58,823 nucleotides of DNA from Patescibacteria group bacterium (GCA_004322205.1 SCSN01000007.1:1-58823), one strand, 5' to 3'. Positions 7,651 to 57,600 are shown, counted from the stretch's first letter. Notes: generated by a model not told the origin, from the sequence alone. Program-made: numbers and translations.

Positions 7651-8727
7651 TTGAACAGCACTCGCTGGCATTTTTATCTCAAAACCCAAGACGCCTGGCG
7701 CTCGATGAAAGAAGCGTGCTTAAATGCTCGCGCTTCCATTGACTTTGAGCAGTATATTTTTGAAGACGACGCCATTGGGAAAGAGTTCGTCGAGGTTTTT
7801 CTGAAAAAACAGAAAGAAGGGGTGAAGGTACGCATTCTCTGCGACATGGTTGGTTCGTTTTCTTTCTGGAGTTCTCCCCTGCCTCAAAGATTGCGCGCGG
7901 CAGGAGCAGAGATGCGCTTCTTCCATATTGTGAAGCCGTGGCGGATGGGAAAGATTCTCTCATGGTTCTTCCGAGATCATCGCAAAGTTCTGGTCGTTGA
8001 CAACACAATCGGATTTGTCGGAGGAGTCTGCTTCCGGGACCAGATGAGAGACTGGCGAGATACCCATCTCAAGATTTTTGGACCGGTTGTCTCTGAAATG
8101 AGAGAGGCTTTTGAAGAGCTCTGGCAAGCAGCTGCCGAAAAAAACATCTTTCGGCGACTCAAAAAAGGCAGAAAATTCGTTCGCGGTTTCTATTTCATTA
8201 CCAACTCTCCCTATTTCCGGAAGCGGTTTCTCTATCGAGAGCACCTCTCCGCTATCCGAAGCGCCAAACGCTTTATCTATTTCACCACGCCGTATTTTGT
8301 GCCTGACCACCGTATCTCCCGCGCTCTGCGGGCAGCGGCGGGGCGAGGTGTGGAGGTGAAAATTCTTCTGCCGGCAGTTTCAGACATTCCCTGGGCAGAC
8401 CGCGCTTCGCGCGCTCTCTGGGGACGATTCCTTTCTGCCGGAGTGCAGCTCTTCCGCTATCATGGCGACGTTCTTCACGCCAAAACGGCAGTTATAGACA
8501 ATTCGTGGAGCACTGTGGGCAGCTTCAATCTCGACAATATGAGCATTCTCTTCAACTACGAAGCCAACATCGTAAGCACCGAAGTTCGTTTCGCCGAAGA
8601 AGCGAAAAAGATCTTTTTAAACGATTTGGCGCGCTCACAGCCGGTTGTTCTTTCTGAATGGCTCAAGCGCCCGCTGCGACAAAAAATGCTCGAGTGGCTG
8701 ATCCTCCCCTTCCGAAAATTTCTCTAA
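7651..8727 (+). CDS. cls: Phospholipase D / cardiolipin synthase family protein
   Basis: 358-aa ORF with two HKD motifs (HRKVLVVD, HAKTAVID). TTG start 6 nt after TAATAT. Confidence 0.85.
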   Translation: MNSTRWHFYLKTQDAWRSMKEACLNARASIDFEQYIFEDDAIGKEFVEVFLKKQKEGVKVRILCDMVGSFSFWSSPLPQRLRAAGAEMRFFHIVKPWRMGKILSWFFRDHRKVLVVDNTIGFVGGVCFRDQMRDWRDTHLKIFGPVVSEMREAFEELWQAAAEKNIFRRLKKGRKFVRGFYFITNSPYFRKRFLYREHLSAIRSAKRFIYFTTPYFVPDHRISRALRAAAGRGVEVKILLPAVSDIPWADRASRALWGRFLSAGVQLFRYHGDVLHAKTAVIDNSWSTVGSFNLDNMSILFNYEANIVSTEVRFAEEAKKIFLNDLARSQPVVLSEWLKRPLRQKMLEWLILPFRKFL

Positions 8728-8819
8728 CTGACAAGCTATTCACCGCCACACCCTTCCCCTAAGCGTTGCAGGTAAAGAGAAAACGTGATATAGATTATTG
8801 TATTCTCTTTTCTCAACCG

Positions 8820-9335
8820 TTGACGAACAAAGCACGCATCAACCATCAGATTCAAGCCCGGGAAGTTCGGGTTATCGGCCCTGCCGGCGAAAACTTCGGT
8901 GTCCTGACACTGGGCGAGGCGCTCAAGGCGGCGCAGGAGCTTAATTCGGACCTCATTGAAATTTCTCCAAACGCCACACCGCCCGTAGCCAAAATCATGG
9001 ACTACGGCAAATTCCAGTACCTAGAGAACAAAAAACTTAAAGCCGCCAAAGCCAAGAGCCGCACCGCCGAAGTCAAGACTGTCCAAGTAAAAATCGGCAC
9101 AGGAGAACATGACCTTCTGCTCAAAGCCAAGAGGGCCGGGGACTGGCTTGAAGCGGGCAATCGGGTTCAGGTTGATCTCTTCCTGCGCGGGCGGGCAAAA
9201 TACCTTGATGAAAAATTTCTGCGGGGGCGAATCGAGCGAATTCTTCGCTTAATTCCCGTGGAATTCAGCGTCGCCGAACCGGCAAAAAGAAGTCCGAAAG
9301 GTTTCACTGTTCTACTCGAGCGAGGGAAGAAATAA
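8820..9335 (+). CDS. infC: Translation initiation factor IF-3
   Basis: IF-3 N- and C-domain sequence (INHQIQAREVRVIG.., KIMDYGKFQY). The ORF is open from 8766. The TTG at 8820 gives a typical length, but the start is uncertain. Confidence 0.85.
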   Translation: MTNKARINHQIQAREVRVIGPAGENFGVLTLGEALKAAQELNSDLIEISPNATPPVAKIMDYGKFQYLENKKLKAAKAKSRTAEVKTVQVKIGTGEHDLLLKAKRAGDWLEAGNRVQVDLFLRGRAKYLDEKFLRGRIERILRLIPVEFSVAEPAKRSPKGFTVLLERGKK

Positions 9336-10224: not shown

Positions 10225-13200
10225 CTACCAGCCCCAGCCGGGATCGATGTTCCAGGCTCGCAGACGGCCCCACCACACTGATTGGGGTATGATCGGCCCT
10301 TGATTCATGTTTCGCCCCAGCGCCATTCCATATATTGAACTCCTGTTAATTACCGTGTTCTTGATTGACATAAGTGGAACGCCGTCTATCCTGATTTCCA
10401 TAAGACCATCTGGAACATTCGTAGCAGACGATACTTTCATGTGTTCTCTGATATAATGCCACTGGCCGTTAGTAATTACGCTCCACTGAATACTTGCTGG
10501 ACCCCCCGACAGGAAGAATTGTTCATTGTCGGGCGGGCCTCCTGAATAATTTCTTCTCGGTGGATTGCCTAGCCCTTGGCTACCTACGACTAGACTGAAT
10601 CTTGATACGCTAGGATACACTCTTCCAAATAGGAATTTATAACCATTTGATGAGACTCCAGTACATTGTTGAACATAAGTTTCAAACCCGGGAGTGAATT
10701 TAAACCATCCTTCAAACCAAACTTCCTTTTCTTGTTTAGGGAATTGTATATTTCTTCCTATAGTATAATCGCGACAAAGATTTGGATCATTTGTTCGGTC
10801 TGGGAAATCGTATCGCATGCTCTTTCCTGTCATTCCTGGCGGAGTATCAGTATCAAGAGCAATCCTATTTACACCCTTATCCTCATTAGCACCACTCCAC
10901 ATTGGGTTCGGATAGGCGAGAAGATCTGCTGTTGTTGAATAATTACTAAAGTCTTCTTCTATCCAAGGTTGTACTCCTGCAGTTACCTTTATGAGAAAAT
11001 CTTCCACGCTCCAGCCGTCAGGAAGAGAGGCGTAATATATATTCCACCAATTATATCCACCTGCTGCTACTGGACCGCCTCTGACTGTGCCTTGAGCGCC
11101 CAAAGCTTGAGTCCCAAGCAGAGTGCCATTTGGCATAGCTCTGACGTTGAGGAGGTTGGCGGTGGTTTGGACAAAATCTCCAATTTGGAATTTGGTTGAA
11201 GACGGTTGTGTCACGGTTACGGTAGTGCTCTGGTTTGTGGTTCCCCCACTTCCGGTACATGCGAGAGTGTAGGTAGTTGTGACTGCGGGAGTAACTAATT
11301 GACTTCCTGATGCGCTAGTTAATGTCGTCCAAGGTGCGAAGCATGAAGTAGCATTTATTGAACTCCATGTGAGGGTTGAAGGGCCGGCTGTTATTGAGGA
11401 AGGAGAAGCAAAGAGAGTGACGATGGGAGCCGAGATACCACTATTCACCGCCGTTCGCCATCTTGCAATATAAACGTAAGCATCCTGTAAGATTGGACTT
11501 GGTGAACCGTTTGTTGGGTTCCAAGTTAATCCGCGGAAACCGGGATTGCCAGTAGGGGGAGTTATCATAATATTCTGAGCGTTTATTCTCCTAACTCCGT
11601 CAACCCACAACTCAAATGATCCATCACTTTGCCCAGGCGTTCCGGCTCGAATACGACGCTCCACCAAATACCATTTACCAAGTGGCAAAAGCGCAAACGA
11701 GGTCGAGTACTGCTGTCCCAAACCAGTGTACGCTCCACCAAATTGCGTTGCGAACCCAAATTTAAATGCGTTTGGACCGTAGAAGCCAATAAAGTGGTTC
11801 GTCAATCCATTGTTTGGATTCTGCAAATAAAATCCAAATTTCGCTCCATTATTCTGGGCTGGCTCAACATAAGCTGGGTCGTGCATTATATAGAAAGCAT
11901 CATAGACATCAGAAAACACTTGCGAATTAGCAAATTGCAAATCCACCCTGAATGGCGCCGCGCCAGCCGGAGTTCCAGCGCCATACTTTCCTTCCAAAAC
12001 TTTGGTTTGTCCCGTTGGAGACAACGGCAGACCTTTTGTCACCAAATCAGCAATCGTAAATCTTCCAGCTCCCGAAGTTATAGTCCATAGACCATTAGAG
12101 ATACTACCGGTTGGCGGGACAGTTGTATTAAATGTTTCGTCAGAAATTACCGTGTGCCCTGATGGTTGGTTCGGGAATTGTACTGGTGTCGGTGTTGGGG
12201 TTGGGGTTGGGGTTGGGGTTGGGGTAGAGCCAGACCAGCCGGGATCTTGATCCCAGGTGCGCACACGTCCCCACTGCACTCGCACAACACTGTTGGCGGT
12301 CTGCTGATTCATATTAGCTCCCAGCGACCAGCTCCAGATCTTGCCGCCCTGTGCTGAAACAATGCCAGAATCATACTGAAGCACTCCGTCAAGCCATACC
12401 TGTAAGATTCCGCTGGAACCGCGCTTGGCGTGAAATCGGAAAGTGTGCGGCTGATTATCGGCGTATTTAGCCCATGAAGGTTTATTTAAGGTGACCGGTG
12501 AAAAACCCGGAACCTCGTAGCTTGTTTGGTGCGTCTGGAAAATTCCGATCATGTTTCCGAACCGCTGTGCACCAGATGGAGGTTGGGGCGACGTGATACG
12601 CGCAAAGATATATTTGTATGCGCTGCTGCTCTTTCCTACGCACTCGGGTGCGTAGGTCTCAAAGTTCACGAGTCGCACTTCGAACTCCCCCCAGACTTCG
12701 TCCAAAGGACGGCCGGTTCCGCCCGCAACGCCCGTGCCAAAGTCCATGTTGGGACCAATTGAGTGATCTATACAATTAGCCGTAGCGCCACGTTGGAACT
12801 TGTATTCCATGTAAGCGCCGTTCGAACCGAAGCCGGGAATCCACTCTGAATCAAGACCCTTGGCAGGATCGTTGTCTATGTATTGGTAACGCAAGAAAAC
12901 ACTGTTCGGATCATCCGCAGGTTCGTTCGTCCAGACACCATTAGGATTGGAAGCGCTATAAATGTCCGAGAGCATAGCCGTCTTGGTATTCCAGCGGCTG
13001 AATTGAATATCTTGGAATGGCTGAACCGATGCAGAAGACACGCTAACCGTAGCAGATTGACTAGCACTTCCTCCCGCTCCTATACAAGTAAGAGTGTAAG
13101 TAGTGTTTACTGTCGGTGAAACTAATTGAGTTCCCGAGATTGCTTTTGTTCCTGACCATCCACTACTTGCCGTGCATGAAGTGGCATTGGTTGAGCTCCA

Positions 13201-14490
13201 AGTGAGAGTTGATGATTGGCCTGGTGTGATTGTGGTTGGTGGGGCGGTGAGGGTGACGGTAGGGGTAGGAGTCGGCGGAGAGCTGTAGACAGCACTGACT
13301 TTTGCTGCGTATGGGCAAAATCGCTTCCCCAACCATTGAGAAAGAGTGGACTCTACATAGGATGGTCTGGCATCACAAACTTCCATGAAGACCTGGCCTA
13401 GAACTATGGTGGAAGGATCAAGATGCCAGCTCCAAGGCGAATTAAATCCCCCGTTACTTGAATTAATAATACCACTGACAATCAAACTTCTTGACCCGTT
13501 AAGATCATTGAGCGCTTGTTGAACAGTGGCTGGATCAGTCATTTTAACAAGAAACGATTCATTCTGGTTGTCTATCATGACGTACTTGAAGTATTTTGCG
13601 GTAGTTTGAGTGGTGACTGTCACGGTTGCGCTCTGACTGGCTGATCCACCCGAGCCGGTGCAGGTCAGAGTGTAGGTGGTGGTAATTGTCGGAAAGAAAA
13701 TTTGGGAGCCGGAGATTGAGCGCGAGCCGCTCCAGCCATTACTTGCCGTACAACTTGTGGCATTGGTTGAGCTCCATGTGAGTGTTGATGATTGACCGGA
13801 AGTTATTGAGGAAGGAAAAGCGGAGAAGGTGAGAGTGGGTGAGGGGGTGGGAGTTGGTGAGGGAGATGGAATCTCTGAAGAAACAGTGACTGTCACGCCC
13901 CGGCTTGCAGTTCCCCCGCGGCCGGTGCAAGAGAGGGTATAGAGAGTGGTGGTGGTCGGGAAGAAAGATTGCTCGCCGGAGGTTGAACGTGACCCGTCCC
14001 ATCCGCCGGAAGCGCTACAAGAGGTGGAGTTGGTGGAGGACCAAGTCAGAGTGACAGCTTGACCTGAAGTAATAGCGGCCCGGCTAGCGCTCAAAACAAC
14101 GGACGGTTTTTCGGCTATCGGCTCTGTTCCCTTTTCAGAGGCGGTAGTGACGGTAACTGACTTTGAAACCGTACCGAAAGAAAGAGTGTAAGTGGTAGTT
14201 TGAAGAATGGGCTTGGTCACCTTGTCCCCTTTGTAATTAACAAAAAGGTTTGCAAACTGTCCGCCGTTCAATTTGCCGTCAGGACATGCGGAGCTTGCCT
14301 GCCAAGCGAGAACTACCTCCTGCCCCGCCGCGATTGAAGATGGGTTTGCAGTAAATGAGCTTATGGTGCAAAGCGATGAAGAAACTTCGGCGAGATTGCG
14401 CGAAGTGAGCGTGGAAATGAGAGTACTAATATTCTGAATAGCAAAAAGCAAAGCCGCCGCGATCGCCGCGGACAGGATTAAACGCTTCAT
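10225..14490 (-). CDS. Giant secreted multidomain surface protein
   Basis: 1421-aa ORF with a signal peptide. It has at least 6 copies of a ~90-aa Cys-pair Ig-like module (TLTWSSTNATSC..GW.GS....TTYTL.C.G.GG), an SH3b-like segment and PT linkers. Two paralogous ~260-aa jelly-roll-like modules end in WGR(V/L)R(T/A)W..DPGW, and a third related module ends YIARWRTAV. Confidence 0.85.
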   Translation of the reverse strand: MKRLILSAAIAAALLFAIQNISTLISTLTSRNLAEVSSSLCTISSFTANPSSIAAGQEVVLAWQASSACPDGKLNGGQFANLFVNYKGDKVTKPILQTTTYTLSFGTVSKSVTVTTASEKGTEPIAEKPSVVLSASRAAITSGQAVTLTWSSTNSTSCSASGGWDGSRSTSGEQSFFPTTTTLYTLSCTGRGGTASRGVTVTVSSEIPSPSPTPTPSPTLTFSAFPSSITSGQSSTLTWSSTNATSCTASNGWSGSRSISGSQIFFPTITTTYTLTCTGSGGSASQSATVTVTTQTTAKYFKYVMIDNQNESFLVKMTDPATVQQALNDLNGSRSLIVSGIINSSNGGFNSPWSWHLDPSTIVLGQVFMEVCDARPSYVESTLSQWLGKRFCPYAAKVSAVYSSPPTPTPTVTLTAPPTTITPGQSSTLTWSSTNATSCTASSGWSGTKAISGTQLVSPTVNTTYTLTCIGAGGSASQSATVSVSSASVQPFQDIQFSRWNTKTAMLSDIYSASNPNGVWTNEPADDPNSVFLRYQYIDNDPAKGLDSEWIPGFGSNGAYMEYKFQRGATANCIDHSIGPNMDFGTGVAGGTGRPLDEVWGEFEVRLVNFETYAPECVGKSSSAYKYIFARITSPQPPSGAQRFGNMIGIFQTHQTSYEVPGFSPVTLNKPSWAKYADNQPHTFRFHAKRGSSGILQVWLDGVLQYDSGIVSAQGGKIWSWSLGANMNQQTANSVVRVQWGRVRTWDQDPGWSGSTPTPTPTPTPTPTPVQFPNQPSGHTVISDETFNTTVPPTGSISNGLWTITSGAGRFTIADLVTKGLPLSPTGQTKVLEGKYGAGTPAGAAPFRVDLQFANSQVFSDVYDAFYIMHDPAYVEPAQNNGAKFGFYLQNPNNGLTNHFIGFYGPNAFKFGFATQFGGAYTGLGQQYSTSFALLPLGKWYLVERRIRAGTPGQSDGSFELWVDGVRRINAQNIMITPPTGNPGFRGLTWNPTNGSPSPILQDAYVYIARWRTAVNSGISAPIVTLFASPSSITAGPSTLTWSSINATSCFAPWTTLTSASGSQLVTPAVTTTYTLACTGSGGTTNQSTTVTVTQPSSTKFQIGDFVQTTANLLNVRAMPNGTLLGTQALGAQGTVRGGPVAAGGYNWWNIYYASLPDGWSVEDFLIKVTAGVQPWIEEDFSNYSTTADLLAYPNPMWSGANEDKGVNRIALDTDTPPGMTGKSMRYDFPDRTNDPNLCRDYTIGRNIQFPKQEKEVWFEGWFKFTPGFETYVQQCTGVSSNGYKFLFGRVYPSVSRFSLVVGSQGLGNPPRRNYSGGPPDNEQFFLSGGPASIQWSVITNGQWHYIREHMKVSSATNVPDGLMEIRIDGVPLMSIKNTVINRSSIYGMALGRNMNQGPIIPQSVWWGRLRAWNIDPGWGW
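12185..12226. repeat. Hexanucleotide microsatellite (GGKGTY)7 encoding a (PT)7 linker
   Basis: ggtgtc ggtgtt then ggggtt x4 and ggggta, in frame inside the giant ORF. Confidence 0.9.
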
Positions 14491-21476: not shown

Positions 21477-21526
21477 GCCAATATTATACGAACGATACGA
21501 GCGAAGTGAGCAAATAAAATTGAGCA

Positions 21527-21654
21527 CCCCCCACTAACTTTTCCACTCACCAGCCTCGATTTCTCGTCCCATGGACGAAAAATCATTTTTAATACCAGCA
21601 TGATATATAAATTATTCTTCATATAAATCATTGTTCTGAAAAGTTAGTGGGGGG
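21527..21654. repeat. Family-A intergenic hairpin element (copy A1) between rpsH and rplF
   Basis: 17-bp perfect terminal inverted repeat ccccccactaacttttc / gaaaagttagtgggggg. Internal hairpin tcgtcc-cat-ggacga. Conserved aaatcattgttctgaaaagt end. Confidence 0.8.
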
Positions 21655-21705
21655 TAGAGTTTCGCAATCTCTGTTTGCTTCAGCAAGCAAACAGAGGGCG
21701 AATTC

Positions 21706-23822: not shown

Positions 23823-23863
23823 GCCAATATTATATGAGCGAAGCGAATAATAATATTGAGCAT

Positions 23864-23990
23864 CCCCCACTTACTTTTCCCCTCAAAACAAGCGATTTTT
23901 TGTCTTGCAGACAAAAAATCATTTTCAATTCTTGCACGTAATCTAAATTAACGTTTTTGTAAATCATTGTTCTGAAAAGTAAGTGGGGGG
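23864..23990. repeat. Family-A intergenic hairpin element (copy A2) between rpsQ and rplN
   Basis: Terminal inverted repeat cccccacttacttttc / gaaaagtaagtggggg. Internal 12-bp perfect hairpin gattttttgtct-tgc-agacaaaaaatc. About 85% identical to copy A3 by eye. Confidence 0.85.
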
Positions 23991-24005
23991 TTGTGTAATT
24001 CATGG

Positions 24006-24257
24006 TCACTGCGTTTCTTGAATTACAACAAAGTGTTTGTGCTTCGAAATCGGTTTTGTCTCTTGAATCACCACCTTCTCGCCAACCTTCCGAACGTTTC
24101 CCGGATCATGCGCCTTGTATTTTTTCCGATATTCGATGTATTTGCCGTAGCGCGGATGCCTGACGTAGCGGCGCACAAGAACAACCACCGTGTCTTTCAT
24201 CTTGTCCGAGATTACCACTCCAGAAAACTTTTTCCCTTTTGTTTTTGTTTCCGCCAT
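24006..24257 (-). CDS. rpsQ: 30S ribosomal protein S17
   Basis: 83-aa ORF, typical S17. Confidence 0.95.
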   Translation of the reverse strand: MAETKTKGKKFSGVVISDKMKDTVVVLVRRYVRHPRYGKYIEYRKKYKAHDPGNVRKVGEKVVIQETKPISKHKHFVVIQETQ

Positions 24258-28075: not shown

Positions 28076-28121
28076 GTTAGAGATTGTTAGTGAGCGAACG
28101 CGAGCTTACAAGACTCTTACA

Positions 28122-28249
28122 CCCCTCACTTACTTTTCCTCTTAAAATAAGCGATTTTTTGTCTGCAAGACAAAAAATCATTTTCAACTCTTGCGTATAA
28201 CCCAAACTAACATTTTTGTAAATCATTGTTCTGAAAAGTAAGTGGGGGG
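28122..28249. repeat. Family-A intergenic hairpin element (copy A3) between rplW and rplB
   Basis: Terminal inverted repeat cccctcacttacttttc / gaaaagtaagtgggggg (one G:T). Internal hairpin gattttttgtct-gca-agacaaaaaatc. Confidence 0.85.
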
Positions 28250-28277
28250 TTGAGTAATTTATATTCACTTCGCTACG

Positions 28278-28640
28278 TTAAATTACTTCAATCTTCTCTC
28301 CCGCTTTCAAATAGACATACGCCTTCTTGCCGCCGGCCTTCATGCCGCGTCTGCGCCTGCTAAAAATTTTCTTGCGGGGAACATAAGTTACGGCGACTTT
28401 GCGCGGCTTGACCTTGTAGACAAACTCAACCGCTTGGCAGATATCGCGCTTCGTTGCTTCGGGAGAAACTTCAAAAACATAGACATTATCGGCCGTTTTG
28501 TCGGTCGCCTTCTCCGTCACTCGCGGGCGAATGAGAATGTGATCGAGAGCGCGAGAGGGAGTAACGCTTGATTCAGCGCGCTCCGGCGCTTTCTCCTCTT
28601 TCTTCTTTTCTTCCCTCTTCTTTTTACCAAAAAGAGCCAT
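28278..28640 (-). CDS. rplW: 50S ribosomal protein L23 with N-terminal Lys/Glu-rich extension
   Basis: 120-aa ORF, L23 core ILIRPRVTEKA.. Confidence 0.93.
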   Translation of the reverse strand: MALFGKKKREEKKKEEKAPERAESSVTPSRALDHILIRPRVTEKATDKTADNVYVFEVSPEATKRDICQAVEFVYKVKPRKVAVTYVPRKKIFSRRRRGMKAGGKKAYVYLKAGEKIEVI

Positions 28641-39501: not shown

Positions 39502-41028
39502 TCAGGATAAAAGAACTTGCGCCTGGCGCGCTCTTTTATTTTTGTAAATTCTCCAAAGCATAAATCCATACAGGGCAAAGATAAACCACATAAGAGCGGC
39601 GGGGAAAAAAGTAAGAGAAACCGCAGCAAAAGGAAGAGAGGAAAACCATTCAACAACTTTCAGAACGTAAGTGAGCAAAAATTGCGCAATGATCGCGAAA
39701 GGAAAGGCAAGAAAGCCAGCGAGAAAACCGAGAAGACCGGCAAAAAATCCAAAGAACATTATGACAGGGACAATCGGCAGAACCAAAAGATTGACGGGAA
39801 GCGAAACAACTGAAAATAAACCGGTCTTGTACAAAAGAAGCGGCAGAACGAAAAGCTGGGTGGCTACTGTGTCGGAGACAATTGTTCGCAAGGCGAACTT
39901 CTCTGTAATACGCGAAAATTTTTCACCTAAGAGAGGCGCAATCCAGATGAGAGCAACGGTGGCAAGAAATGAAAGTTCAAAGCCCGTGTCAAAGACAAGT
40001 ACTTTTGGATTCCAGAGCACCATGGCGCAGGCTGCGATGACAAGCCCGCGCGCCACATGGTAGGTTCTGCCCGTGGCGCGAGCGAGTAGCACCAGAATCG
40101 CCATAAGCGAAGCTCGAACGACAGAGGGCGCGCCGCCGACCATAATGGCAAAGAGAACAATGCCAAGGGCAGAGGCGGCCAATGACACTCTGCGCGAGAG
40201 AAAACAGAGGCGAGAGAGAAGCCAGAGGATAGAACTCGCCACCAGTGTTATGTTGTAGCCGGAAAGCACCACGATATGGATGATGCCGGTCGTCCGAAAA
40301 GTTTGCTCCAAATCCTTGCCAAGCGAGCTTTCCGTGCCGAGGATAATCCCGGAGAGAAGCGATGAGGCCGGCTCGGTAATTCTTCTCTCAAAATTCCCAA
40401 TGAAGCGGAACTTGACAGTCAGAAGCGCCCGTTTGACTGGGCTGCCCCCACCTTCCGCAACAAGTTCGCCCGAGGCGAAAGAAAGAATGAGGTAGATATC
40501 GTCTTTGGCAAGGTAAGCGGCGTAGTCAAAAATGCGGCCGCCTTCTTCAATGGCCCCCGGCCGGTCGAGTCTGCCGGAAAATTTCACTTCGTCACCGTAG
40601 TCAAACTGCGGATACAGCTCTGCTCTAACTAGAATCTTCTCGCCGTCGAATTCAGATGCCCTAATAATGTAGAGTTCATAGGTCTCGCGATGCTCCGGCT
40701 CCTCGACAACGACTCCCGTGACAGAGGCGCGTTCTCCAACCCGCTCGAGAAGCGCCGGATGGGGAGCGGAGAGATCTTTGACTTCGTAGCGCGCCACTCC
40801 GACCGCGAAAAACAAAAGCGTAAGAGCAATGATTTTGAAAATTCTCTGCGTCTCCGCCTCTGCGACTTTTAGCCATCTATAGAGAAACAACAGAGCAGAA
40901 AGGAAGACAAAAAAGATCGCCGTGCTGAAGCTGAAATTGGAAAACGAAGAGATAAAAACACCAAAGAGAAAGGTTCCGGAAGCAAGAAGAAAGATATTTC
41001 TGCCTAGGAGCGCAATTCCTTTTTCCAT
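39502..41028 (-). CDS. comEC: ComEC/Rec2 DNA-uptake channel (DUF4131 plus competence TM domain), lacking the MBL domain
   Basis: 508-aa polytopic ORF with the OB-like segment (ERASVTGVVVEEPE..) followed by about 10 TM helices. Confidence 0.8.
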   Translation of the reverse strand: MEKGIALLGRNIFLLASGTFLFGVFISSFSNFSFSTAIFFVFLSALLFLYRWLKVAEAETQRIFKIIALTLLFFAVGVARYEVKDLSAPHPALLERVGERASVTGVVVEEPEHRETYELYIIRASEFDGEKILVRAELYPQFDYGDEVKFSGRLDRPGAIEEGGRIFDYAAYLAKDDIYLILSFASGELVAEGGGSPVKRALLTVKFRFIGNFERRITEPASSLLSGIILGTESSLGKDLEQTFRTTGIIHIVVLSGYNITLVASSILWLLSRLCFLSRRVSLAASALGIVLFAIMVGGAPSVVRASLMAILVLLARATGRTYHVARGLVIAACAMVLWNPKVLVFDTGFELSFLATVALIWIAPLLGEKFSRITEKFALRTIVSDTVATQLFVLPLLLYKTGLFSVVSLPVNLLVLPIVPVIMFFGFFAGLLGFLAGFLAFPFAIIAQFLLTYVLKVVEWFSSLPFAAVSLTFFPAALMWFIFALYGFMLWRIYKNKRARQAQVLLS

Positions 41029-41786
41029 GTTTCAATAGTATCGTTCTCCTCCTCAAGAGAAAAAGTTTTTTTGAATTTTGCACCGGAGACGCCTTTTACC
41101 CTCTTCTCGCACTCTGCCCAGGTTTTGTAAGTTTTAATGATTCCGTTAACCAAACTAACGTAAGAATAAGCTTTTTTCGTAGATCGTGGAGCGTGGAACG
41201 TGGAGCGTTTGAGGATGGTGGAGGCCGAAATATCTATTCCGTATTTCTTAAGAAAACCAGAATAGAGTTTTGATCTCTTGCCGCCTGCCCTGCCGGCAGG
41301 CAGGTCCGCGAACATTGTGGCAATCTCGTCGCATCGCTCATTTGCGGCAATTCCAGAGTGTCCGGGCAACAATTTCCATTCGATCTTCAGACCTTTGCTT
41401 ACCTTCAAGAACCTTCTCCACAAATCTTGGTTCTCCACCTTCTTCTTTGTCTTTGTTTTCCATTTACTTTTTACCCACCCGTGAACCCACGTCCCGGCGC
41501 CGTTTAGAACATAGCTAGAATCCAGATAAACTTTTAACCTATAACTTTTAACTTGCAACTTTTTTACAAATTCAAGCGCCTTTATTAGCGCCGTCAGTTC
41601 CATCCGGTTGTTGGTTGTTCTTTCAACTCCGCTCCCTAATTCCTGAACCCATTCCTGATTCTTTATTCTTAATTCTTTATTCCGCATTGTAATTTTGCCC
41701 GCTGGCAAAATTACAATGCTTCCCCACCCTCCCGGTCCGGGATTACCACGTGAAGCACCATCAGTAAAAATAGTTATCTTCTGCAT
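41004..41786 (-). CDS. rnhA: Ribonuclease HI fused to a C-terminal hybrid-binding (viroplasmin-like) domain
   Basis: FTDGASRGNPG, NNRMELTA, YLDSSYV, GHSG..NERCDEIA. The C-terminal YSYVSLVNGIIKTYKTWAECEKRVKGVSGAKFKKF resembles the RNase H1 HBD. Confidence 0.85.
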   Translation of the reverse strand: MQKITIFTDGASRGNPGPGGWGSIVILPAGKITMRNKELRIKNQEWVQELGSGVERTTNNRMELTALIKALEFVKKLQVKSYRLKVYLDSSYVLNGAGTWVHGWVKSKWKTKTKKKVENQDLWRRFLKVSKGLKIEWKLLPGHSGIAANERCDEIATMFADLPAGRAGGKRSKLYSGFLKKYGIDISASTILKRSTFHAPRSTKKAYSYVSLVNGIIKTYKTWAECEKRVKGVSGAKFKKTFSLEEENDTIETWKKELRS

Positions 41787-41803
41787 GCGAGAAGTCTAGC
41801 ACA

Positions 41804-41836
41804 TGAAAAACGCCAGGCACCGTCCGGTGCCTGGCG
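41804..41836 (-). terminator. Rho-independent terminator just upstream of rnhA
   Basis: cgccaggcacc-gtcc-ggtgcctggcg followed by ttttt on the minus strand. Confidence 0.85.
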
Positions 41837-41898
41837 GGAAAGACCCAAGGTTCAAAGTTTCAGGAACTTGCCTGCCCCGTGGCAGAGCTTCGCTCTGC

Positions 41899-42050
41899 TT
41901 ACAGGGCGCGGACAGCCGCGGGGTAATCCCGGCCCCGGGCGTCAAAGAGCCAGCGCCAGCTCGCGATCACCCGCTCGCCGTGCCAGACGAGACACGCCAC
42001 GCACCGGCCGTAGCCGCCGGTGACTATTCCCCTACCACCGCTTGTATAGT
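41899..42050 (-). pseudogene. Orphan C-terminal fragment paralogous to the 3' end of the 42146..42762 gene
   Basis: The translation ..GGYGRCVACLVWHGERVIASWRWLFDARGRDYPAAVRAL* aligns with ..GGDRFVASLVWSDEWVIVSWHWLEFDWNRSNPAAVRASS*. It lies downstream of a strong terminator and has no convincing start. Confidence 0.55.
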
Positions 42051-42051
42051 A

Positions 42052-42088
42052 GCACGAAAACCGCCCAGCGCGCGTGCGCGCTGGGCGG
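42052..42088 (-). terminator. Strong GC-rich rho-independent terminator
   Basis: 12-bp perfect stem ccgcccagcgcg-cacg-cgcgctgggcgg followed by ttttcgtgc (minus strand). Confidence 0.85.
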
Positions 42089-42145
42089 AGGATCGAGTCC
42101 CAAAGGATCCAAGTACAAGATCCAAGAGACTCAAGGTCAAAAGTT

Positions 42146-42762
42146 CTAGGAACTTGCACGGACAGCCGCGGGATTGCTCCGATTCCAGTCGAACTCAAGC
42201 CAGTGCCAGCTCACGATCACCCACTCGTCGCTCCAGACAAGAGAGGCGACGAAGCGGTCACCGCCACGGTCCCGAACGCTTCTCCAAAGGAAAACGTTCT
42301 TACCCTTGAACTCTTCCGGGTAGGTGTCGGGTTCGCTAGCCAGCCCTTGACTTCTTCGTCCTTGAGCGAGAGACAGCGGTTGATGATACCCGTCTCGCGG
42401 AGGTGCTTCTCGAGATCATAACCCTTGATCAGGCCGCCCTCTTTTTGTTTGGGGTGGAAGTAGAGCTTGATCCCTGTCGTCTTCGGCTCGGTTTCGGTAA
42501 GAGTCTGTTCTGCTGTCGAATAGCCGCACACGGGACAGCTCAACTTCTTATCCAAAACCTCGAGAAATGACCCGCAGTTCGGGCATTCGCTTCGAGGTAC
42601 AACGTGGGCTCTCTTCGGAATAGGAACCCAGCACGGCTCACGGCGAAGAAATCTCTTCGCCTCCTCTGTCCACCTTGTTGAATCGTTGCCTAGAAGGCAA
42701 TCCTCGAACTGGTCGCGTAGTCCGCGAATATCGCGGAGTTTCGCTCTGAGCGTGTTGTCCAC
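42146..42762 (-). pseudogene. Zn-ribbon protein of unknown function, reading frame broken by a 1-nt frame change near 42329-42331
   Basis: GTG at 42762 with AAGGAG 6 nt upstream; CPNC..CPVC ribbon. Frame A stops at 42217. From about 42330 another frame reads ..PDTYPEEFKGKNVFLWRSVRDRGGDRFVASLVWSDEWVIVSWHWLEFDW.. to the stop at 42146. Confidence 0.6.
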
Positions 42763-42817
42763 GGTCAGCTCCTTTTTTGAGGTACTGGCGGCTACTATCT
42801 TTCACCGCTCTGGTACT

Positions 42818-42845
42818 ACTATATCAAAAACTCCGTAATTGTCAA
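42818..42845 (-). promoter_or_regulatory. Near-consensus sigma70 promoter of the Zn-ribbon gene
   Basis: Minus strand: TTGACA (42840-42845), 16 nt, TATAGT (42818-42823). Confidence 0.55.
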
Positions 42846-42896
42846 GACCGGGTCATTCAAATAACCGCAAAAAGCAAGAGTGTTAAAACTTCTTTG

Positions 42897-42936
42897 GACT
42901 TCCTTAGTGTATCATATATGATACACTAAGGAAGTC
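42897..42936. promoter_or_regulatory. 40-bp perfect palindrome containing the 26-bp core TTAGTGTATCATATATGATACACTAA
   Basis: gacttccttagtgtatcata|tatgatacactaaggaagtc, verified base by base. Same core as 45686-45711. Confidence 0.7.
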
Positions 42937-42964
42937 TGTTTTTGGGTCTAAATACTCAAAACAA

Positions 42965-54600: not shown

Positions 54601-57600
54601 CAAAACTCCTGAAACTTTGGTTTGACTTGGACTTGCACCGTGCCGATTCCGTTCACTCCGCCGGAGCAGGAAGTGGTCTGGCTGTTGAAGAGATCGGTCA
54701 CCAAGACGTCGGCGGTCTTGAGTCCGGTTGTTTGGTAGGTGATGAAGTAAGGATTAGTAGAGGGAGCCGGTGACGCCGGAATATCCGTGCCTGACCATGA
54801 ATAGCTGAAGGGTCCCGTGCCGCCGGAGAGAATCGCATCCCAGCGGACTTGCTGACCGACTTGCGCCGGTGACGGCGAGGCGACGCAGGAGACGGAAAGC
54901 GAGGGCGGCGCGCTGACATTCACCGTGAAAGAGGTAACGTCGTCGCCGGGCGTTGCCGTAGAGGGCGAGCCCGAGACAGTTACCGTGTAAATCCCCGGAG
55001 TAGCCGAGCCCGAAACAGCTACATCCACATAACCAGTGCAGGTCGGCGTGCAACTTTGATTCGGATATCCGGAGATACTCACTCCCTGCCCCGATGGACT
55101 AACTGACGCAGAAAGTGTGACACTCTGTGCCGAGCCCGAGGTCAGAGTTTTCGCAATAGCGCATTGAACCGTCGCCCCTTGCGGAGTCGAGAGAGCGCAG
55201 GTATTTGTGAGCTGGTAATCAAACACCGGCACAGCAGTGTAGGTGAGAGTAAATTGCTTGGTCTGCCCCGGAATTAAATTCATCGTTGAGCCGGAGCCGT
55301 CAGAGTTTGAGATAGTCGGCGGAAAGTTGTAGCCGCCAACGCTTCCCGGCGAGATGGTGTAGCTTGTGCCGCCCGGCGCCGCCGCAGGATTGACTGTATG
55401 CAAGACATTTGTGCCCGAACCGCTGACGCTCCCGGGATTAATAGTCCAAGTCGCCGAGACATTTGAGACCACGTTGATGGTTGCCTGTGAACTTAGGTTG
55501 ACTGTGGCGGTTCCCCGAGTGGTTCCTCCGAGGCCAGTGCAGTCCAGATAGAATGAAGTTGAGCTGTTAATAGGACCGACTCCGCTTTGACTGCCCGATG
55601 CAACTGGTGTTTTTGACCCGCTCCAGTTGGCGATCAAACTGCTGTTGGATGCCGTGCATGACGCGGCGTTGGTGGAAGTCCATGAAAGAGTGGTTGTGCC
55701 CCCGCTTAAAACAGTTGTCGGATTAGCGGTGAGAGTAACAGTCGGCGCAACATTTACCGCAAAACTGTCATTAGTCGTGCCGTTGGTGTTTGAACAGGAA
55801 AGTGTATAGGTGGTGTTGGCGGTCACTGGTCCGATGTTTGTCTGGTTGTGTGTGCCGTTAGTTGCCGTCTTTGCTCCTGACCAACCCCCCGATGCGCTGC
55901 AACTTGTCGCGCCTGACACTGCCCACTGCAGATCAATTCTGCTTCCAGAACTGACGCCGAGCGGTCCCTGTCCGTATGAGCCAGAGCTTGAGAGCCGACC
56001 GGTGAGGTCAACTGTCGGCCCGGCGCAGGCCGCCGAAGCCGCGGCGCTTGCTTGGCTGGAGTTTGCCGAGCCGCCGTTGGCGTTGAAGGTGCGGACTACA
56101 TAGTAGTAAGTTACCCCCGGTGTCAGAGCAGAGTCCTGATATGTCGTAGTCGTCAACCCAGAGACAACAGTCGTGCCGTACGGTCCGCCTGATGCGGTGC
56201 CGCGATAGACCGTGTAACTTGTAGCGTTAGCCGAGGCATTCCAAGACAAGTTGATCCGCCCCCCGCAAGTTGGTGAAGTTACAGCAGAAAGCCCGCTCGG
56301 GACTTGCGGTGTGGTTACTATTGTTACAGAGTCGTTTGCTGTTCCACCTGCACCGGTGCAAGAGATGGAGTAAGTGTTGCTCCCTGCAGTCAGAGCTCCG
56401 GTTGAAACACCGGTTGAATTGTTTGCCGCTCCGCCGGTTGAGAAATTGGTGCCGGTGCAGCTCGTGGCATTGGTGGAAGACCAGCGCAGGGTGGCGGACG
56501 CACCGTAGGCAACGGTGATCGGCCCTTGAGAGCTGTTGGCGGTAATGTCTGCGGTCGGGACAGCACAAGCGCTCGGCGCTGTCCCATTCACTGCGGGAGA
56601 GGACTGTGCTGAGGAACCAGCACTGTTAGTGGCTCTCACTGTGTAGCTGTAGGAGGCAGCAGCAGTAAGTCCCGTATCTATAAAAGAGGTCCCCGGTCCG
56701 CTATAAATTTGTGTCCCCCCCCTAAACAACTGATAGCTTGTGGCACCACTCGAGGTGTTCCAGGAAAGCGTAATCTGACCTGTGCCACACGCGCCGGGAG
56801 TTGCAGTCAGACCAGTTGGGGTGGGTGGTGGAACAACGCACGCGGCCGAGGCTACTGCCGAGACAGTGTTTGAATCGAGTGAATCAATCGTTCCATTCGT
56901 AGTGCGGACAGTGTATGAATAACTTGTGCTCGGAGTTAGCCCAGTATCGGTATACGAAGTTCCTGAAACTTGGATAACAAAAGTTCCGTTTCTGTAAATT
57001 TTATATCCGGTCGCGCCGGAAACAGAATTCCACGATAAATCAACCTGCCCTCCGCAAGAAGTGCCAGTGGTAGCAATCAGCGTCGGAGCAGGCAATACAT
57101 TTACCGTTACAAAATCGATTGCTGGGCCTGCATTGCCGGAACAGCTTATTGAATAAGCAGTATTTGAAGTAACAGGACCTATTCCTAACTGGGTGTAAGT
57201 GCCGTCGGGAGTAAATGTCTTTGACCCTGACCAGCCGCCGGAAGCGCTGCAGCTTGTCGCCTGGAAACTTGACCAGGACAAATCAACATTACTGCCGGAG
57301 GGAATAGTAATTGGCCCGTTACCATACGAACCGCTTCCGGCCAATCTCACCTTAAGATCAACAGATACTTGCGGGGGTGGAGGAGGTGGAGCACATTGAA
57401 TATCAAACACTTGCGCACTACCCGGGAAAAGAGTGAGCGACGATCCTCCGCCGAGAGAGTTGGTGATCGTGGGGCTACTGCATCCGGACACGCTGATTGT
57501 ATAGAGAGTCCCGATGCTATCAGGGCGTGTGTTATAAGGACCGCCCGAAGTCCCGGACCCGGAAGCAATAGTTATACCACCGGCAACAATCGTCCATGAG

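Follow-up and report, generated by a model that had tools for sequence, protein, structure and literature searches.

The question posed by this locus is why, in the 58.8-kb stretch of Patescibacteria DNA analyzed here (the window), the interval between recJ and rnhA holds a gene with a broken reading frame that is followed by a second copy of only its 3' end. An earlier note on this DNA had described a zinc-ribbon gene with its own promoter and a duplicated C-terminal remnant, and all of the features it listed were located on the minus strand at the positions reported there. A consensus scan identified the sigma-70-like promoter TTGACA-16-(TG)TATAGT at 42818 to 42845 (written 42845->42818), with 11 of 12 consensus matches and a TG ahead of the -10 element; shuffled sequences gave a mean of 0.6 promoter sites across the region. 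It is followed by the RBS AAGGAG (42774-42769), a 6-nt spacer, and a GTG start codon at 42762, the whole signal occupying 42760 to 42774. The syntenic relative L001 has an identical RBS but an ATG start. The first ORF (frame A, 181 amino acids, 42762->42217) matched the profile HMM of the family described below with an E value of 1e-27 and encodes an N-terminal helical region, a zinc-ribbon insert (residues ~47 to 90), and the first half of a conserved target domain, while everything after residue 145 is an out-of-frame tail. The zinc ribbon itself, CPNC...CPVC at residues 60 to 79, gave weak Zn-ribbon matches in Pfam and NCBIfam, all of them below threshold. It forms an insert of ~35 residues that is unique to the window protein among the 162 family proteins fetched.

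Pfam confirmed both neighbors, RecJ (DHH, DHHA1, and RecJ_OB) on one side and RNase H on the other, with ComEC and a HIT protein farther out. Between the recJ stop codon and the promoter of the target gene lies a perfect 20-bp AT-rich palindrome (GACTTCCTTAGTGTATCATATATGATACACTAAGGAAGTC, 42895-42938), which is probably a bidirectional terminator. The RNase H gene (41004-41786, minus strand) encodes 260 amino acids, including a C-terminal extension of ~100 residues that matches the "RNase H1 N-terminal" hybrid-binding domain (Cauli_VI) at residues 220 to 242. This domain is usually N-terminal, and in the window protein it is found at the opposite end. Other repeats were observed elsewhere in the window. 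A repeat of ~170 nt occurs three times in the ribosomal-protein gene region (21495-21660, 23832-24031, and 28120-28291; 76 to 84% identity) and contains a long inverted repeat (CCCCCCACTTACTTTTC...GAAAAGTAAGTGGGGG); its appearance is that of a small intergenic element, mobile or structured. Diverged direct repeats of ~220 nt (61 to 69% identity) are found inside ORFs of 1,426 and 1,140 amino acids (11210-14078 and 55650-57299), and the two ORFs are linked by one repeat cross-match.

The break in the target gene could be placed precisely. After ...GWLANP, the sensible protein leaves frame A at CCC 42331-42329 and enters the -1 frame, and in the alignment of the repaired protein this run is one base short relative to all homologues. 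Adding one base there restores a 205-residue protein that ends in PAAVRASS (stop codon at 42148-42146), which reproduces the repaired ORF of about this size that the earlier note had predicted. The continuation in frame B (42146-42328, minus strand) comprises 61 codons and a stop, encodes the remainder of the conserved domain, and matched the family HMM with an E value of 6e-29. The homologue search that had been proposed as a check on this second frame returned 12 metagenome proteins of 127 to 213 residues, all of which read VKGWLANPxTYPEEFKGKxxFLWKS in a single unbroken frame, and the repaired protein aligns with them through WLANPxTYPEEFKGK. Among the 46 loci with a family member, the window alone has a gene split between two frames at this site. 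No further decay was seen in the downstream frame. Since the 61 downstream codons are still family-like, we infer that the 1-nt loss is either a recent lesion or an artefact.

The conserved domain belongs to a very large family. A profile search of a library clustered at 50% recovered 1,259 representatives at an E value of 1e-3 or less and 349 at 1e-10 or less, nearly all of them small proteins with a domain of ~110 residues at the extreme C terminus. Its signature is WLANPxTYPEEFKGKxxFLW together with a W-rich variable repeat (VR), which makes up the last ~35 to 40 residues. The W-rich C terminus is therefore a recurrent module, as had been suspected. It had also been called uncharacterized; it has no name in Pfam, and it is identified here as the VR of a target protein of a diversity-generating retroelement (DGR). 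The window protein falls within the small target-protein family of Patescibacteria (CPR) DGRs, with a match to P0002 at an E value of 2.6e-47 and 100% coverage. The conserved domain of the repaired protein falls outside every Pfam and NCBIfam family, and searches of Pfam, NCBIfam, and PDB sequences with the repaired protein, the family profile, and other targets of the lineage gave only the subthreshold Zn-ribbon matches; the family profile had no match among PDB sequences. An AlphaFold model of the repaired 205-residue protein, built from 13 sequences, was too poor for use (pLDDT 59). The model of the intact homologue P0004 (123 sequences) reached a pLDDT of 93.4 and shows three N-terminal helices followed by a compact alpha/beta domain, the last four strands of which carry the VR. 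Foldseek searches of this model against PDB and BFVD returned nothing at an E value below 0.07. Among the weak PDB matches, none of which had an E value below 0.07, C-type lectin-like chains were enriched, with TM scores of 0.3 to 0.45.

The assignment to a DGR comes from the relatives. A pair of repeats, one of them noncoding (the TR), with mismatches on the adenines of the TR is the signature of such an element; in DGRs generally, a reverse transcriptase (RT) with Avd copies the TR and misincorporates opposite adenines, and the cDNA replaces the VR. The comparison of recJ-rnhA intervals that had been suggested led to a cassette of the same kind in locus L001, where the gene order is HIT, recJ, the homologue P0011, a gap of 520 nt, rnhA, and comEC. 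The gap contains a noncoding copy, rich in AAC codons, of the last 117 nt of P0011. Ten of the 11 mismatches between this TR and the VR fall on adenines of the noncoding copy. Genomes of Saccharibacteria and Zambryskibacteria and other contigs behaved in the same way, with 17/17, 12/14, and 8/12 TR/VR mismatches at TR adenines. L001 and 61 other loci carry a noncoding TR ~480 nt downstream of the VR; across these 62 loci, median TR/VR identity was 86.6%, and 919 of 1,001 mismatches lay on TR adenines, compared with 16 on VR adenines. In a full cassette, the target gene is followed by a structured RNA of ~240 nt fused to the TR, an antisense avd gene, and a DGR-type RT gene. The antisense gene after the TR hairpin encodes a 116-residue bAvd-like protein (PF22296, 44.1 bits against a cutoff of 40), and the RT is an RVT_1 protein of ~340 residues with NLTSQ...YADD. 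Avd was found in 65 of the related loci and the RT in 53, and in more than 30 loci the gene immediately before the RNA-TR encodes a window-family protein. The relatives come from Saccharibacteria, Zambryskibacteria, Nomurabacteria, and other Patescibacteria. Because the TR/VR pairs differ in an adenine-specific manner, the cassettes contain avd and RT genes, and family members lie upstream of the RNA-TR in so many loci, the window protein family is shown to be a target family of the Patescibacteria DGR lineage. In L110 (2635-2985, minus strand), as at the equivalent site of 65 loci, the antisense gene has its 3' end directly against the terminal hairpin of the TR, which would then double as a bidirectional terminator.

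The RNA that precedes the TR is a conserved noncoding element of ~240 nt between the target terminator and the TR, starting GGTAGTAGG. It was located in L001 (8763-9000), L003 (2139-2370), L004 (8073-8350), L011 (1723-1945), and ~85 metagenome loci; in the window, a stub remains at 42046-42002 (minus strand). A motif derived from this element recovered 120 metagenome loci, most of which matched the whole RNA-TR model, while a scan of viral contigs with the same motif gave 10 loci, none of which (0/10) matched that model. RNAalifold applied to 63 sequences predicted 62 base pairs, of which 47 show compensatory double changes. When pairs were counted for a structure to which a proposed long-range helix had been added, 96.1% of the cells were paired versus 84.0% in shuffles and 41 to 52% when partners were slid, and 626 cells showed double changes versus 169 in shuffles; none of 500 shuffles reached any of these measures. 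The long-range helix would join the invariant AAAUGAAGA, in a loop of the 5' domain, to the invariant UCUUCAUUU immediately 3' of the TR. It is 97% paired, with variation that is almost solely G-C to G-U and therefore tests it weakly. Such pairing would clamp the TR as a loop. No family in Rfam 15, the RT motifs included, matched the window region or the RNA-TR regions of the relatives.

Against this layout, the window retains fragments: a target gene with a 1-nt break, an RNA stub, and an A-poor VR-type copy in the place of the TR. The VR of the target gene (copy 1, 42148-42274, minus strand; 13% A) matched model positions 242 to 365 in an nhmmer search (E value, 8e-14). In the repaired ORF it accounts for the final ~40 residues, which places the VR at the 3' end of the target, as in other DGRs. 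The frame break sits 55 nt upstream of it. Terminator 1 (42052-42088), identified by the consensus scan, begins 57 nt past the target stop and consists of a 12-bp hairpin (42088-42061; 11 G-C pairs and a 4-nt loop) with a T-tract. Equivalent hairpins are present in L001, L003, L004, and L011. It matches the position of the GC-rich inverted repeat downstream of DGR VRs and is also a plain intrinsic terminator, as the earlier note had it. The RNA stub follows (42002-42046), with a -10-like TACTAT and then GGTGGTAGGGGAATAGTCACCGGCGGCTACGGCCGGTG; nhmmer aligned 42046-42008 with model positions 2 to 40 (E value, 7e-5), and the initial hairpin, CACCGG...CCGGTG, is preserved as far as 42002. Only the first ~40 to 50 nt of the RNA are left; the other ~190 nt are missing, together with ~25 nt from the start of the TR.

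After the stub comes copy 2 (42007->41899; family HMM E value, 4e-10), a VR-type repeat with no start codon that covers the C-terminal ~33 codons, reads CVACLVWHGERVIASWRWLFDARGRDYPAAVRAL up to its stop, and stands where the relatives have their TR. Its A content is 7%, without AAC codons, versus 23 to 26% in the TRs of the relatives. An in-frame insert of 36 nt (41872-41907) supplies the TAA stop and a GCAGAGC-GAA-GCTCTGC hairpin, and beyond it the frame ends in ASS and a stop again, like the family. Next come a VR-type 3' flank (GCAAGTTCCTGAAACTTTGAACCTTGGGTCT) and the second hairpin terminator (41836-41811), which together span 41803-41871. The flank of copy 2 (GCAAGTTCCTGAAACTTTGAACCTTGGGTCT, the hairpin, and TTTTTCATGTGCTA) resembles that of the VR itself, unlike the TR flank of the relatives (GCAAATCTCTTCATTTCTC). 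The duplicated unit also extends over the 3' flank, the terminator, and bases beyond. No other part of the machinery was found in the 58.8-kb window: there is no ORF with YxDD and no phmmer match to the RT of the lineage, no phmmer match to Avd, and, by search with the RNA-TR model, no TR or further RNA-TR copy.

We compared the two copies with each other. Copy 2 and 42257-42156 are 71.6% identical over 102 nt, with 29 mismatches; A stands in copy 2 at 3 of these and in copy 1 at 9. With A in copy 2 at 3 of 29 mismatches, copy 2 was rejected as a TR for copy 1, and the pair lacks the near-confinement of mismatches to TR adenines that is seen among the relatives (919/1,001). A search for the nearest TR to the window VRs among 70 fetched TRs gave L004 as the best, at 72.5% identity, too distant for a direct reconstruction of the template. 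In invariant stretches the two copies are 92 to 100% identical, and when columns were classified from 32 relatives, mismatches between the copies occurred at 16 of 26 TR-adenine columns versus 17 of 84 columns elsewhere (odds ratio, 6.3; Fisher P = 1.5e-4). Because the differences concentrate at these columns, both copies appear to be independent products of adenine mutagenesis from a TR that is now lost. The duplicated remnant of the earlier note is accordingly a real second copy, which shows a signature of retro-mutagenesis and is no plain, drifted duplication.

Our preferred reading, which we consider probable, is that the window holds the degenerate remains of a DGR cassette from the Patescibacteria (CPR) lineage; the system is known, and this member of it has decayed. 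It keeps the decaying accessory gene of the earlier note, which had overlooked the DGR nature of the locus, the VR, and the missing TR position. Other explanations have to be weighed against it. That note also proposed programmed -1 frameshifting and phase variation, and either process, acting at the C run, would control the output of full-length protein; in their favor, the two frames join in a short run of C's and the second frame remains intact. The junction, GCG AAC CCG ACA (region of 42329-42331), contains no slippery heptamer of the form X XXY YYZ, and all homologues read it in one frame, with none split at the site. In a search of the ORF for a long homopolymer or short tandem repeat, only CCC at 42329-42331 was found, and a run of three C's is not a contingency tract, being too short for slipped-strand switching. 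The remainder of the cassette is visibly degraded, and we regard either form of regulation as scarcely credible. An ordinary tandem duplication of the 3' end of the gene, followed by neutral drift with no retro-mutagenesis, would account for a duplicated unit that takes in the flank, the terminator, and the following bases. Drift predicts an even spread of differences, which was tested and not seen: conserved segments are nearly identical while differences pile up at TR-adenine columns, both copies are depleted of A in a VR-like manner, and the RNA stub between them marks a former TR module at the site. This explanation is very improbable.

The alternative that the target is still functional deserves a longer treatment. 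It holds that a C was lost through an error of assembly or sequencing, that the gene is intact in vivo, and that one or both VRs are diversified in trans by a complete DGR (RNA-TR, avd, and RT) elsewhere in the genome, copy 2 being an orphan VR. The frame-B part is undecayed, the closest cassettes also have no nearby RT or avd and are nevertheless adenine specific, and several RNA-TR modules or RTs occur in L020, L059, and L107. VRs are known trouble spots in metagenome assembly. Some contigs with family members (L002, L005, and several short ones) stop a few bases from the VR, with the family gene of L002 ending at position 1253 of 1,269; such ends fit hypervariable VR/TR repeats breaking metagenome assemblies, which would be expected and bears on whether the frame break is an artefact. 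The break could indeed be one, and this counts against the decayed-cassette reading. Remote targets have been acknowledged for DGRs (PMC8144416). On the other side, the RT-less relatives retain their own RNA-TR, which is lost from the window; copy 2 is without a start codon, has an internal stop, and is missing most of the gene; a 3-C run is not error prone in short-read data; and the window has the sole gene split at this site among the loci with a family member. Taken together, we judge a live target to be unlikely. It should be noted that 58.8 kb of the genome is visible, and that an RT, Avd, and TR encoded elsewhere could act on the window VRs in trans.

How the cassette would have decayed can be outlined from the preferred reading. 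In an intact cassette, a promoter past the target terminator would drive the structured ~240-nt 5' domain and the TR as one RNA, a proposed single transcript from GGUAGUAGG. The RT and Avd of the CPR lineage would copy the TR with errors opposite adenines, and the cDNA would then replace the VR and rewrite a ligand-binding C terminus. A deletion or recombination may have removed the template and left RNA position ~50 joined to a second VR partway along its length, and the most economical ancestor would be an arrangement of target 1, RNA-TR, and target 2. Alternatively, the TR may have been converted by VR-type DNA, with the deletion occurring afterwards. The 1-nt frame break would be later than the loss of the template, and recent. 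What we infer here includes both the order of these events and the choice between deletion and conversion. In L128 (962-541, minus strand), the TR is A-poor and 99.2% identical to the upstream VR (1 mismatch in 121), and L088 and L123 are partly similar. VR-type sequence has apparently replaced the template of L128, which indicates that templates can be overwritten.

The closest relatives of the window cassette form a sub-lineage of their own. L001, L003, L004, and L094 have a target and an RNA-TR (8756-9165, 2132-2541, 8065-8524, and 3029-2616, respectively) with no RT or avd within 2.6 to 10 kb downstream. They are each other's closest RNA relatives (73 to 85% identity) and occupy different housekeeping sites, after recJ, serS, or 5S rRNA. 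Their TR/VR differences are cleanly adenine specific, which makes a supply of enzymes from elsewhere plausible and suggests that the cassettes are served in trans. A bolder version of the decayed-cassette reading would place the window in a "satellite" DGR lineage that uses enzymes encoded elsewhere, with the RNA 5' of the TR enabling use in trans through the AAAUGAAGA/UCUUCAUUU clamp. Copy 2 would then record the death of a cassette, in which the template was replaced by, or deleted down to, a mutagenized VR-type copy, and L128 would be a second example. We put this forward tentatively, as a possibility that is open to considerable doubt.

The prototype DGR, that of phage BPP-1 (mtd-avd-TR-brt; PMC5758913, PMC3240598), shares with this lineage a VR at the 3' end of the target ORF and a GC-rich hairpin downstream of the VR. 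In the relatives, it is further matched by a nearby noncoding TR that differs from the VR at TR adenines and, in complete cassettes, by an Avd-like four-helix protein and a DGR-type RT. Unlike in BPP-1, the target is a cytoplasmic-looking protein of ~155 residues without detectable sequence similarity to Mtd or CLec, the avd gene of the relatives is antisense and lies between TR and RT, and the ~240-nt structured RNA precedes the TR, whereas BPP-1 has its Sp/RT-10 region after the TR; the window itself has no TR, avd, or RT. In BPP-1, the RT-10 motif, which lies between TR and brt (Weinberg et al. 2017, PMC5737381), is likewise a conserved structured RNA within the TR transcript, but the RNA domain of the relatives is 5' of the TR and much larger.

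Closer counterparts are the DGRs of CPR bacteria, named "clade 2" by Roux et al. 2021 (PMC8144416) and the "CPR set" by Wu et al. 2018 (PMC5758913). Their targets have been described as small proteins with no recognizable domains (PMC8144416), and their VR classes, UVR1-6, as being of unknown fold (PMC5758913). The present lineage shares with them its Patescibacteria hosts, targets without transmembrane or other recognizable domains, and numerous non-A substitutions. It differs in that the window copy is a relic and that the window's sub-lineage (L001, L003, L004, and L094) is without RT or avd at the distances given above. Remote VR targets (PMC8144416) and multi-target architectures (PMC5758913) are also on record, and the window resembles such targets served in trans in having two VR-type repeats without a local RT; unlike them, its second VR is geneless and there is no local TR.

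These results change how the locus should be annotated: what was described as a frame-broken Zn-ribbon gene with a duplicated tail becomes a DGR target pseudogene with a second VR, and not a site of recoding or phase variation. The more novel material, namely, the RT-less cassettes and the TR-linked structured RNA, is in the relatives and not in the window. The analysis brings to light small DGR target proteins in Patescibacteria that make up a very large family with no name and, attached to the TR, an RNA domain that covaries strongly and has no counterpart in Rfam. Target/TR cassettes that have no RT of their own are invisible to DGR surveys anchored on the RT. The relic in the window is a natural snapshot of the loss of a hypermutation cassette.
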